Source: Patescibacteria group bacterium (GTDB taxonomy: Bacteria; Patescibacteriota; CPR2; UBA1875; CAIMLA01). From it: DNA of 64,000 bases. Numbering within the stretch: the stretch's first letter is position 1; each line of letters starts with the position of its first letter. Of the stretch, positions 10,318 to 39,396 are shown piece after piece. The notes beneath the pieces were generated by a model that did no database searches, was not told the origin of the DNA, and saw nothing but the letters and a program-made list of their open reading frames with translations. The translations under genes were made by a program, and so were the position numbers. The stretch is taken from positions 158,564-222,563 of the forward strand of contig JBGSPL010000001.1 of NCBI GenBank assembly GCA_041738615.1, written 5' to 3'.

Positions 10318-10392
10318 TGGGGAGTCGCCAAGTGGTAAGGCACCGGTTTTTGGTACCGGCATTCGGGGGTTCGAGTCCCTCCTCCCCAGCCA
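10318..10392 (+). tRNA. tRNA-Gln (anticodon UUG)
   Basis: Cloverleaf read by eye: acceptor TGGGGAG/CTCCCCA, D-arm GCC-AAGTGGTAA-GGC, anticodon stem CCGGT/ACCGG with loop TTTTGGT, T-loop GGTTCGAGTCC, encoded CCA. Confidence 0.85.
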
Positions 10393-36880: not shown

Positions 36881-37885
36881 CTAGATATCCCAGGCAAAAC
36901 CATTCCCAAAGTGGCCTTGCGAGGCAGTTTGCCGATACACTGGGTCCCTGAGTCCCAGACTTGATATTATCCCATCCGGTGAAAGGTCGTACTCACCGTC
37001 TATGAGAAGATTAATTTCTTTGTGTCCGTCAATTATGGCAATGGCCATTACTGGCTGGACGACACCAATGCTGTAAGCGAGTTTCACCAGCACCTCATTA
37101 CAGTTCAACTTTCTAAGATAATCAACTGCGATGCGCCGTGCCATATAGGCAGCACTACGGTCGACCTTGGTAGCATCTTTGCCGCTATAGCAACCGCCGC
37201 CAATTGGTATTTGAGGTCCATAATTATCGACAGCTAATTTCCGACCGGTAAGACCGGTATCAGCCGTAAAACCTCCGATAGAAAAGTCCCCGGTCGGATT
37301 TATATGAATATGTATTGGCTTTAAAGTTTCTGCCAACTCGCGAAGCGGAGCAAAATCCTCACCGGGTTGGTGTTGCGCACTTATGACGACGGTATCGACA
37401 CTACCATCCTCGGCCAAGGTAACCTGACTTTTGGCGTCAGGGCCAAAACCTACCGGCAAAGCGTGGATTAGCTTACGCGAAAGGTAAAGTCCTTGGGGTA
37501 TCATCGCTTCATTCTCGTTACAAGCATAACCAACCATAATCCCCTGATCTCCTGCCCCACCAACATCAACACCCTGTGCGATCTCTGGACTTTGATGAAC
37601 GACATTCGTAAATACCTGTAGAGTGTCGTTGTAACCAATTACTGTATAAATATTTTGTACAATTGAGGTCAAATCAAAGTGTGCCTTCGAAGTCACTTCG
37701 CCGGTTATATATATCTGCCCATGTCCTCCCATAACCTCTACTGCCACTCTGCTCCCGGGGTCCTGCCGCAGATATTCATCCAAGATAGCATCTGATATCT
37801 GGTCACATACTTTGTCTGGATGTCCAGCGCTCACACATTCTGCAGTTCGCATTCCCTTGTTTTTAAAATAGTCATTTTCGCTCAT
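36881..37885 (-). CDS. metK: S-adenosylmethionine synthetase (short form)
   Basis: GHPDKVCDQISDAILD, GAGDQGIMVGYA, DAKSQVT, GGGCYSGKDATKVDRSAAY; SD AAGGAGA-6-ATG at 37885. Confidence 0.9.
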   Translation of the reverse strand: MSENDYFKNKGMRTAECVSAGHPDKVCDQISDAILDEYLRQDPGSRVAVEVMGGHGQIYITGEVTSKAHFDLTSIVQNIYTVIGYNDTLQVFTNVVHQSPEIAQGVDVGGAGDQGIMVGYACNENEAMIPQGLYLSRKLIHALPVGFGPDAKSQVTLAEDGSVDTVVISAQHQPGEDFAPLRELAETLKPIHIHINPTGDFSIGGFTADTGLTGRKLAVDNYGPQIPIGGGCYSGKDATKVDRSAAYMARRIAVDYLRKLNCNEVLVKLAYSIGVVQPVMAIAIIDGHKEINLLIDGEYDLSPDGIISSLGLRDPVYRQTASQGHFGNGFAWDI

Positions 37886-37907
37886 TATGCTCTCCTTTTG
37901 TTTTAGC

Positions 37908-37936
37908 AATCAAAAATCTCTTTCCACCGAAAGAGA
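37908..37936 (-). terminator. Expression-platform intrinsic terminator of the metK riboswitch
   Basis: Minus strand TCTCTTTC-GGTG-GAAAGAGA followed by TTTTT, 25 nt before the metK SD. Confidence 0.65.
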
Positions 37937-37960
37937 CAAGTTCGACCTTTTCATATAGGA

Positions 37961-38095
37961 CTTATCGCTCCACTTTCGTGGCTAGCATTGGCACCCTACA
38001 GCTCTAGGGTTGCCGGCAGGTACCACCATCGCAAAAGATTGCTCTTTCGGTCAGGCATCGGGCTAGTTCCCTATCTGCGCTCTTGATATATTTGA
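37961..38095 (-). promoter_or_regulatory. SAM-I (S-box) riboswitch aptamer candidate upstream of metK
   Basis: Minus strand ...TATCAAGAGCGCAGATAGGGAACTAGCCCGATGCC...GGCAACC...GGGTGCCAATGCTAGCC...GAGCGATAAG matches the SAM-I core (AUCAAGAG, AGGGA, GCCCGAUG, GGCAACC, GGUGCCAAU, P1 closing GAUAAG) with an enlarged P3 insert. Confidence 0.6.
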
Positions 38096-38134
38096 TTGTG
38101 ATCTAAGTATACTAAGGTTTGAGCCTGGAATCAA

Positions 38135-38170
38135 ATAATCCCCACTAAGTTAGTGGGGATTATTTTGGTT
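38135..38170. terminator. Hairpin AATCCCCACT-AAGTT-AGTGGGGATT with flanking T-runs, 3' of the DEAD-box helicase gene
   Basis: 10-bp perfect stem. Confidence 0.6.
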
Positions 38171-39396
38171 TACTCTACAAAAGTTAGGGCTTTGCCGAGA
38201 CTATGCCCTCGGCCAGTACGACCGATGCGGTGGACGTAATCATCATATGTCTTAGGGGTGGTGTAGTTGATTACATGAGAAACGTCCTTGATGTCCAGAC
38301 CACGAGCGGCAACGTCGGTTGCAACCAGGATCTTAATTCGTTCGTCCTTGAAGTCACGAAGTGCTTTCTGTCGCTGTCCTTGGCGTTTATCACCGTGGAT
38401 TGATTCTGCCTTGAAGCCATTCTCAATAAGCTCAACTGCTAGTCTCTCAACGTCACGCTTGGTTTCAGAGAAGATGATAACCTTCTCCATTTCGGGCTGA
38501 GCGAGAATCTCATGTAGTTTAGCTTTTTTGTCAAAACGAGTCGTCTTGATCACTTCCTGATGGACATTGACCGCAGTCTCGCCGCTACTGACCTTTACGG
38601 TAATAGGATTCTTAGCGAAACTCTCTGTGAGTCGCGCGATCTTCTCGGGCATAGTTGCCGAGAAAAAGAGACTCTGTCGCTCAACTGGTAGCTGAGAAAG
38701 GAAATATCGAATTTCATCGACAAAACCCATGTCTAACATGCGGTCTACTTCGTCTAATACGACATTGTTGAAGCTCGAGAACGTGATAAAACCACGGTTT
38801 GCAAGATCCTTTAGACGTCCTGGCGTACCGATAACAAAGTCCTGGCGCATACGCAGGGACGCTATCTGCTTACCAATTGGTAAGCCGCCGACACAAGAGG
38901 TATAAAATATCTTCATTCCCCAAGAGAATTTGCGCAGCTCATCCTCGATCTGGAGAGCGAGTTCACGTGTAGGTGCAATCACCAGCACTTTTTGTGAACG
39001 ATCCTGATAAACTTTGTTGATTAGAGGCAGCAAAAATGCAGCTGTCTTACCTGTACCAGTATTTGCAAGACCGATAAGGTCGCGACCTGCAATGATTGCT
39101 TCGATCGACTGGTCCTGGATAGGAGTCGGTACTCTATAGCCCTGTTTTACAAGATTGGCCTGCAAATGCTCGATGAAGGAAAAATCGGTAAATTTACTAG
39201 TTACTTCTACGACTGGTACTGGATTCGCGAGCGCTTTCTTGGCATTACGTTCGATAAAAGCGTGAATATCAATCTTGCTTTCACCTTTATTGCGGCCGTT
39301 CTTAGACGGACCGAAAGTTCTGTTTGATCCGCGCGAACGGAAATTGCTAGGGCTCTTCTTGATAAAAGACCCCTTAGAGGAGTTGATTTTTTGCAT
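38170..39396 (-). CDS. DEAD-box ATP-dependent RNA helicase
   Basis: 408 aa; Q-motif, Walker A ANTGTGKT, PTRELA, DEVD, SAT, HRIGRTGR; basic RS-rich N-terminal tail. Confidence 0.9.
   Translation of the reverse strand: MQKINSSKGSFIKKSPSNFRSRGSNRTFGPSKNGRNKGESKIDIHAFIERNAKKALANPVPVVEVTSKFTDFSFIEHLQANLVKQGYRVPTPIQDQSIEAIIAGRDLIGLANTGTGKTAAFLLPLINKVYQDRSQKVLVIAPTRELALQIEDELRKFSWGMKIFYTSCVGGLPIGKQIASLRMRQDFVIGTPGRLKDLANRGFITFSSFNNVVLDEVDRMLDMGFVDEIRYFLSQLPVERQSLFFSATMPEKIARLTESFAKNPITVKVSSGETAVNVHQEVIKTTRFDKKAKLHEILAQPEMEKVIIFSETKRDVERLAVELIENGFKAESIHGDKRQGQRQKALRDFKDERIKILVATDVAARGLDIKDVSHVINYTTPKTYDDYVHRIGRTGRGHSLGKALTFVE

Follow-up and report, generated by a model that had tools for sequence, protein, structure and literature searches.

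A predicted SAM-I (S-box) riboswitch with a 34-nt insert in P2 upstream of a Patescibacteria metK

The metK locus and its leader

The window, meaning the whole 64-kb stretch of DNA that was analysed, carries on its minus strand a metK gene (37895..36881) with a GGAG Shine-Dalgarno sequence at 37895..37892, the ATG at 37885, a stop codon ending at 36881 and a product of 334 aa. It is preceded by a leader of about 215 nt that runs up to the metK ATG at 37885 (-). Upstream of this leader, a DEAD-box helicase gene ends at 38170 on the same strand, and a terminator-like hairpin (AAUCCCCAC...GUGGGGAUU and then AUUU; 38161..38137 (-)) lies right after the helicase stop; metK is therefore read as its own transcription unit. 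The order of guanylate kinase, helicase and metK is kept in one related locus, L104. A sigma-70-like promoter site was recognized by consensus match only, with the -35 box TTGATT at 38134..38129, a 17-nt spacer and the -10 box TATACT at 38111..38106 (-), implying a putative start of leader transcription near 38099. The leader of L001, a relative treated below, presents a TTGATT/TATAAT arrangement that is the same as in the window. The tail of the hairpin behind the helicase (38137..38161) overlaps the -35 box of metK.

Judged by its sequence, the leader between 38091 and 37911 (-) is a true riboswitch of the SAM-I (S-box) class, terminator included, that is, an element of known kind carrying a minor or rare structural variant, an insert in P2. 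The core motifs listed in a preliminary description of this DNA, AUCAAGAG (38087..38080), AGGGA, CUAGCCCGAUG, GGCAACC, GGGUGCCAAU and GAUAAG, are all read in the minus-strand leader. The SAM-I aptamer and the intrinsic terminator that it proposed for the sequence directly before metK were borne out by the RF00162 match, the terminator scan, the MetK domains and covariation. A place in the 5' leader of a gene of methionine or SAM metabolism is thus found here, and metK starts 26 nt past the U-run of the terminator.

The aptamer covers 132 nt (38091..37960 (-)), as delimited by alignment to the full RF00162 model (1-108) and by covariation. P1 is formed by 38091..38085 and 37966..37960 (-) and contains an A.A mismatch that is seen clade-wide, and J1/2 reads AAGA (38084..38081 (-)). 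The P2 domain (38080..38015 (-)) was defined from the Rfam alignment, the alignment of sister leaders and covariation. Within it, P2a pairs G13 and G15-G18 (38080 and 38078..38075) with 38019..38015 (-), the kink-turn's non-bulged strand is AUA (38074..38072 (-)), P2b is GGG-AACUAG-CCC (38071..38060 (-)), and the bulged strand consists of GAU-G (38059..38056), the insert and AC (38021..38020 (-)). P3 (GGCAACCCUAGAGCUGUAGGGUGCC, 38014..37990 (-)) is of ordinary size with 25 nt, and P4 spans 37986..37967 (-). One pseudoknot arm, CUAG in the P2b loop (38063..38066 (-)), is 100% paired with the other, CUAG in J3/4 (37985..37982 (-)).

The intrinsic terminator (37937..37911 (-), -10.9 kcal/mol) consists of a 9-bp stem GUCUCUUUC/GAAAGAGAU with the loop GGUG, followed by UUUUU. 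It had been described before as GUCUCUUUC-GGUG-GAAAGAGAU-UUUUU and is present in that form, being the sole terminator-like site given by the scan of 37700..38400. The distance of 25 nt to the Shine-Dalgarno sequence reported with it had to be corrected, since the U-run ends about 15 nt before GGAG (37895..37892).

The S-box and its Patescibacteria relatives

Using a permissive scan of 37800..38250 (451 nt), RF00162 matched the leader over the full model (1-108) with 29.5 bits (E = 1e-4), a value that does not reach the gathering score of 44.4 bits. It was the sole credible Rfam match at the leader and the best member of clan CL00012. The Rfam scan of the whole 64-kb window gave no S-box at gathering score. 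The only matches at that level in the window were a ribosomal protein L10 leader (RF00557, 28765..28898 (-), 64.2 bits) and a tRNA (10318..10389 (+), 60.3 bits). In the Rfam alignment, the window has 57 nt inside P2 where the RF00162 model has 20. Eleven insert-free sister leaders, namely that of L001 and those of close relatives reached through MetK homologues, have near-identical cores, and nine of them pass the gathering score with 46-54 bits (46.3-54.2), while the insert-bearing leaders L002, L067, L118 and L096 fall below it like the window. The insert therefore appears to be the cause of the low score and could explain it alone, because the insert-free clade is only a few bits over the threshold.

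By this score alone the leader would not pass as an S-box, and the fold itself was evaluated by covariation in alignment A1, comprising 20 Patescibacteria leaders including the window, with the SAM-I structure and the pseudoknot written on the window row. Standard pairs occupied 90.7% of the cells, compared with 28-41% when the partners were slid by 1-3 columns; the structure derives from one of the aligned sequences (the window) and the sequences are related, yet the slid controls are still far lower. Thirteen pairs changed on both sides, distributed over P1, P2a, P2b, the pseudoknot, P3 and P4, and the covariation score was reached by none of 500 shuffles. Helices 2 and 3 of P2 were 99-100% paired with compensatory changes. 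For the pseudoknot between the P2b loop and J3/4, the four pairs were 100% paired and two of them changed on both sides, the arms covarying as CUAG/CUAG, CUGG/CCAG and UUGG/CCAA. The preliminary description had proposed to give up the S-box if the Rfam score lay below threshold with no covariation-supported P1-P4 fold. The score does lie below (29.5 against 44.4), but P1-P4 is supported by covariation, and therefore the S-box reading stands despite the Rfam score.

Conserved positions point in the same direction. The highly conserved nucleotides of SAM-I are G11, A12, A20, G21, A24, C31, G35, A36, G43, C44, A45, C47, G56-C59 and A61 (PMC3764141). All conserved SAM-I nucleotides of that source are present in the window, with the exceptions of U4 and G19, which are changed clade-wide. 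The SAM pocket and core in 2GIS numbering (G11, A12, C44, A45, C47, U57, G58, C59, A61 and the pairs A6-U88 and U7-A87) is found complete in the window row of A1.

A covariance model built from A1 (R1) scored the window, which is one of its 20 training sequences, at 86.1 bits (E = 1e-25); with RF00162 as with R1, the match is well beyond what chance would give. Species-representative genomes were scanned with the MetK protein, giving 65 loci, nearly all from Patescibacteria MAGs (Saccharibacteria, Parcubacteria, Komeilibacteria and others). With R1, 48 of the 65 showed an aptamer ahead of metK at ≥57 bits and three more gave weaker matches; by Rfam alone, 11 of the first 20 Patescibacteria loci have an S-box above gathering shortly before metK. 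A classical S-box had been called unexpected in this phylum; from 48-51 of 65 metK loci with R1 and 11 of 20 by Rfam, an S-box before metK is the rule in Patescibacteria. In the literature, of which the coverage was partial, no description was found of an S-box or SAM-I riboswitch in Patescibacteria/CPR or of hairpin insertions in P2, the SAM-I kink-turn. The closest comparison is provided by L001, with a MetK 90% identical to that of the window, an S-box of 49.7 bits (Rfam) and a leader that matches that of the window almost base for base, but without about 34 nt.

The protein is equally ordinary for its clade. The MetK of the window is 100% identical to P0001, contains all three MetK Pfam domains and can be aligned over its whole length with solved MetK structures (380-400 aa), relative to which the shortening consists of many small loop deletions and not of a truncation. 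The best 120 homologues measure 283-364 aa, with a median of 323.5. The gene had also been described as unusually short; its 334 aa are normal for the clade, and the short form is a clade trait.

Position, fold and recurrence of the insert

The insert CCUGACCGAAAGAGCAAUCUUUUGCGAUGGUGGU (34 nt, 38055..38022 (-)) is absent from the 11 sister leaders. In the sisters (e.g., L116), P2 has CCC-GAUGAC-CUGCC as its 3' strand, and in the window CCC-GAUG-CCUGACCGAAAGAGCAAUCUUUUGCGAUGGUGGU-AC-CUGCC. By alignment, the insertion site lies between the kink-turn G (1b, equivalent to G35) and A (2b, equivalent to A36), with boundaries that are ambiguous by a few nucleotides, CCUG and ACC recurring at both ends. 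The kink-turn positions were set by alignment to the 2GIS numbering (G35.A20, A36.G19) from PMC3764141, and the kink-turn definition was taken from PMC3651934. In SAM-I, the P2 3' strand is the bulged strand of the kink-turn, in which G35 and A36 form the conserved tandem G.A with A20 and G19 (PMC3764141). A standard P2 kink-turn, with a 3-nt bulge and then contiguous G.A and A.G, is not found in the window: position 2n is U in the whole clade, and the G and A of the bulged strand are 34 nt apart. A U at 2n is a known non-standard type of kink-turn, and the SAM-I G2nU,G3nU variant still folds within the riboswitch (PMC4316175, PMC3651934).

The predicted fold of the insert has three pairs at the base (G37-C38-C39/G66-G67-U68), a 4x4 internal loop (UGAC/CGAU) and the hairpin CGAAAGA-GCAA-UCUUUUG. 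In a comparison with shuffles, folding energy supports the hairpin strongly in L096 (z = -3.2), weakly in the window (z = -1.3, its fold being no more stable than shuffled sequence) and not at all in L002 (z = -0.3). Constrained folds of the three insert types are alike, each a hairpin closed by the G aligned to G1b, followed by GG(U/G)AC before P2a. With only three distinct insert sequences, covariation inside the insert is anecdotal, two G.U pairs of the window being G-C in L002. No second copy of the insert was found in the 64-kb window, even with three mismatches, and the idea of a repeated or mobile element was dropped. A kink-turn within the insert itself (UGC bulge, then GA) was discarded as well: no consistent non-canonical helix was obtained, and L096 has no GA there.

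Among relatives, such an insert is rare. Metagenomes were scanned for S-box cores in which UAUCAAGAG and GGCAACC are 45-75 nt apart, and 37 loci were obtained. In most of them a hairpin occupies the 5' (non-bulged) strand of P2, and in some it lies between J1/2 and P2a; the 3'-strand insert occurs in just three, namely L096 and, with the insert of L002, L067 and L097. This L002-type insert (CCUGACCGACAUAGCGUCGCGACGGCGGU) has both of its flanks in common with that of the window and differs at the tip, and it is identical in five contigs (L002, L067, L097, L118 and L119). L096 belongs to another S-box subgroup (P2b GAG/CUC); its 31-nt hairpin, placed between the same G and AC, is unrelated, and the metK downstream encodes 316 aa. 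Further insert-bearing relatives, other than the L002 type and L096, did not appear in the genome scan, in the metagenome pattern scan or in 12 contigs of the closest MetK homologues. The 3'-strand insert is thus rare but recurrent, homologous in one other lineage and present as an independent hairpin in a third. Grouping by P4 and expression platform places the window with L001, L107 and L116, and L002 with L103 and L003; both groups have insert-free members, and repeated precise loss or recombination of the insert is therefore implied.

Purifying selection on the L002-type insert was considered and left aside as uninformative, since the whole 690-nt leader block is near-identical between L002 and L118 with metK about 19% different. 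Comparing L002:712-1400 with L118 and L119, the riboswitch and a spacer of about 500 nt differ at only five positions, with metK DNA about 19% diverged, which suggests either recent recombination of this block or a conserved spacer element that has gone unrecognized. The S-box of the L002 lineage lies about 650 nt upstream of metK. In L109:1835-1950 and L121:433-550, extra sequence is found in P4 and not in P2; the clade enlarges its peripheral helices at several sites.

As read from the alignment, the insert leaves all SAM-contacting and core nucleotides intact. Most likely it is a peripheral hairpin, a tolerated and lineage-polymorphic elaboration rather than a new function.

Proposed switch, alternatives and known systems

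The whole-leader MFE fold predicts an antiterminator (37966..37935 (-)) in which the P1 3' strand pairs as GAUAAGU/ACUUGUC and encloses a CCU/AGG hairpin, sharing the first 3 nt of the terminator stem. In silico, a platform with alternation of the P1 3' strand is thus found upstream of the intrinsic terminator, and the GAUAAG/CUUAUC complementarity and the same platform design are kept in the sister leaders. Energies computed without ligand or pseudoknot terms were -45.8 kcal/mol for aptamer plus terminator, -41.8 kcal/mol for the antiterminator state and -47.8 kcal/mol for the antiterminator state with a residual 6-bp terminator stem, this stem contributing -5.0 kcal/mol beside the antiterminator. 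The modelled ON state is not clean because the classical antiterminator leaves the 6-bp residual stem, from which the overlap between antiterminator and terminator is seen to be small. Between the variable small hairpin and the terminator lies a single-stranded stretch, AAAGGUCGA(A/C/U)C (window 37949..37938 (-)), conserved in L001, L002, L003, L103, L107, L111, L112, L114, L116, L120 and L121. It is missing in L104 and L109, whose P2 3' strands read GACUGCC/UACUGCC against GA(C/U)CUGCC, and by sequence AGGUC and GACCU could form an alternative pairing (AGGUC:GACCU) when SAM is absent.

From this platform we infer a switch of the classical S-box OFF type, in which SAM would stabilize P1, the terminator would form and metK would be off. 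Transcription would start near 38099. With SAM bound, the P1-P4 four-way junction and the pseudoknot between the P2 loop and J3/4 would lock GAUAAG into P1, so that the 9-bp hairpin and U-run could form and transcription would stop before metK. With SAM absent, GAUAAGU would pair with ACUUGUC, the bottom 3 bp of the terminator stem would be lost and read-through would follow. The insert would branch off the bulged strand of the P2 kink-turn (G1b/A2b), turning the two-helix kink into a three-way junction. With a probability of roughly 0.8, this is a working SAM-I riboswitch that tolerates the insert and holds metK down through premature termination; the conjectural parts of this reading are that SAM binds, which way the switch acts and how the junction is arranged in space. 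It has to accommodate that the insert splits the tandem G.A, a motif counted as highly conserved and as required for the kink-turn to fold, and that no structure shows a whole hairpin tolerated between G1b and A2b.

The same split of G1b from A2b is what a decaying riboswitch would present, in which the insert had broken the kink-turn, SAM was no longer bound and metK was constitutively terminated at a basal level or read through. G.A substitutions abolish folding of isolated kink-turns (PMC3651934), and the Rfam score is sub-threshold. Evidence against such decay comes from the rest of the element: the remaining core nucleotides, both pseudoknot arms, P1 and the antiterminator and terminator are all preserved, nearly equal to those of L001. 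Moreover, the homologous insert is unchanged in five contigs of two metK lineages about 19% apart (metK DNA), and L096 acquired a hairpin at this site independently. Within the riboswitch, variants of the kink-turn are rescued by tertiary contacts (PMC3651934), and its place can be taken by a pk-turn (PMC4316175). Loss of function is thus considered very unlikely. That the extra sequence is an enlarged P3, as the preliminary description had it, is hardly conceivable. P3 is indeed the most length-variable S-box helix, about 100 nt in L024 and long in L004, L006 and L010, and the insertion of about 35 nt reported there is real (34 nt); its placement was wrong, since the window has an ordinary 25-nt P3 and the additional 34 nt sit in the P2 3' strand, upstream of GGCAACC and between CCCGAUG and ACCUGCC.

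A further proposal gives the insert a part in the switch. Its segment ACCGAAAGAG (38051..38042 (-)) is a perfect 10-nt complement of CUCUUUCGGU (37935..37926), in the 5' arm and loop of the terminator, and could pair with it in the SAM-free state as a second long-range antiterminator that blocks the terminator fully, while compaction of P2 by SAM would keep the hairpin closed. Complementarity of this length was reached by 2 of 5000 shuffles. The duplex amounts to -14.1 kcal/mol and is used in the unconstrained whole-leader MFE fold, which at -61.3 kcal/mol lies about 14 kcal/mol below both classical states; the classical antiterminator, for its part, overlaps the terminator by just 3 nt and leaves the 6-bp stem. 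The observation is nevertheless post hoc, and 7 of the 10 nt follow from GAAAGAG, common to the insert and the 3' arm of the terminator. In the L002-type and L096 inserts, the longest complementarity to the platform is 4-5 nt, the same as in shuffles, so a conserved antiterminator was dropped and the pairing taken as specific to the window. Insert-free sisters share the terminator/antiterminator design, and hence the extra pairing is not needed. In addition, kinetics favour the local terminator hairpin, whose 3' arm emerges 4 nt later, with the insert about 90 nt upstream and already in its local hairpin. A role of this kind is distinctly unlikely, and tolerance of the insert by a working SAM-I riboswitch is preferred. 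A broader claim, that the G1b/A2b bulged-strand hairpin is a previously undescribed elaboration of a kink-turn to a three-way junction, different from a k-junction and arisen at least twice in Patescibacteria S-boxes, with a 5' arm that here may act as a second antiterminator, is unlikely as a whole.

In the preliminary description, then, the element was rightly recognized, the variant was mislocated to P3 and the two supposed surprises are normal for the phylum. SAM feedback on metK, as in Firmicutes, is otherwise expected biology. Patescibacteria S-boxes with an extra kink-turn hairpin, in the 3' strand here and more commonly in the 5' strand, drop below the Rfam gathering score, and therefore SAM regulation is under-annotated in these reduced genomes; a model permitting kink-turn insertions would recover the missed S-boxes. 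These natural variants show kink-turn positions tolerating a branching helix in a kink-dependent riboswitch, and the window leader, which differs from that of L001 or L116 essentially by the insert, offers together with them simple constructs for the kink-turn question.

Compared with known systems, the element is a SAM-I riboswitch by every testable feature but the Rfam score and the standard kink-turn. It shares with SAM-I (RF00162) the P1-P4 four-way junction, AAGAG in J1/2, the GGCAACC...GGUGCC core of P3 with a bulged A, the P2b loop/J3-4 pseudoknot, a kinked P2, the competition of terminator and antiterminator for the P1 3' strand and the control of metK. Examples of SAM-I are the T. tengcongensis metF aptamer (PDB 2GIS) and the yitJ and metK leaders of B. 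subtilis. The window differs from SAM-I in the 34-nt hairpin of the P2 kink-turn bulged strand and in the Rfam score below gathering; clade-wide differences are U instead of G at 2n and the A.A mismatch of P1.

The SAM-I/IV and SAM-IV riboswitches (Rfam clan CL00012) have the same SAM-binding core (P1, P3, J1/2). They are without the arrangement of kink-turn and P2b pseudoknot and present another P4 and pseudoknot, whereas the window has the P2b loop/J3-4 pseudoknot and the P4 of SAM-I. Shortened S-box-like aptamers were observed in two metK leaders, L005:1202-1288 and L061:1319-1412, with a plain hairpin for the kink-turn and P2b. They scored 28-33 bits with R1 and none at Rfam gathering, their MetK is 64-65% identical to that of the window, and judging from these features they may be a SAM-I/IV-like variant.

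The k-junction of TPP riboswitches (Wang, Daldrop, Huang & Lilley, NAR 2014, PMC4005666) is likewise a kink-turn elaborated to a three-way junction in an aptamer. Its defining feature is a third helix in the non-bulged strand, a topology so far described for TPP riboswitches, and the TPP k-junction accommodates a single additional nucleotide between G1b and A2b, oriented away from the helix (PMC4005666). The window differs, with U at 2n and an insert that sits in the bulged (3') strand and separates G1b from A2b, and is not a k-junction in this sense. The topology would also permit P2 to be read as a k-junction in which the insert takes the place of the C helix and P2b that of the third helix, but P2b would then point away from J3/4, and this reading was not adopted because it conflicts with the covarying pseudoknot.

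The k-junction topology is seen instead in about 13 distinct S-boxes whose P2 carries a hairpin of 15-35 nt in its 5' strand, placed directly behind (N)GA and ahead of P2b, with the 3' strand NNN-GA-N. They were located at L072:7624-7754(-), L073:6956-7097(+), L077:239-368(-), L080:743-889(+), L088:1644-1796(+), L093:6863-6989(+), L095:3854-3992(-), L098:1368-1488(-), L102:687-811(-) and others, most of them upstream of a short metK of the Patescibacteria type, and 12 of the 14 tested fell below the Rfam SAM gathering score. In L054:3204-3352 (-), a second S-box of the 5'-strand-insert type (37.5 bits) lies on the opposite strand downstream of metK. Members of this group (L072, L073, L077, L088, L098, L102 and others), met with in metagenomes, resemble the window in being leaders of Patescibacteria-type metK, in the three-way junction of P2 and in lying mostly below gathering. 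They differ in that the hairpin comes after (N)GA in the non-bulged strand, the k-junction topology, and in being commoner, with about 13 distinct sequences against three for the 3'-strand type.
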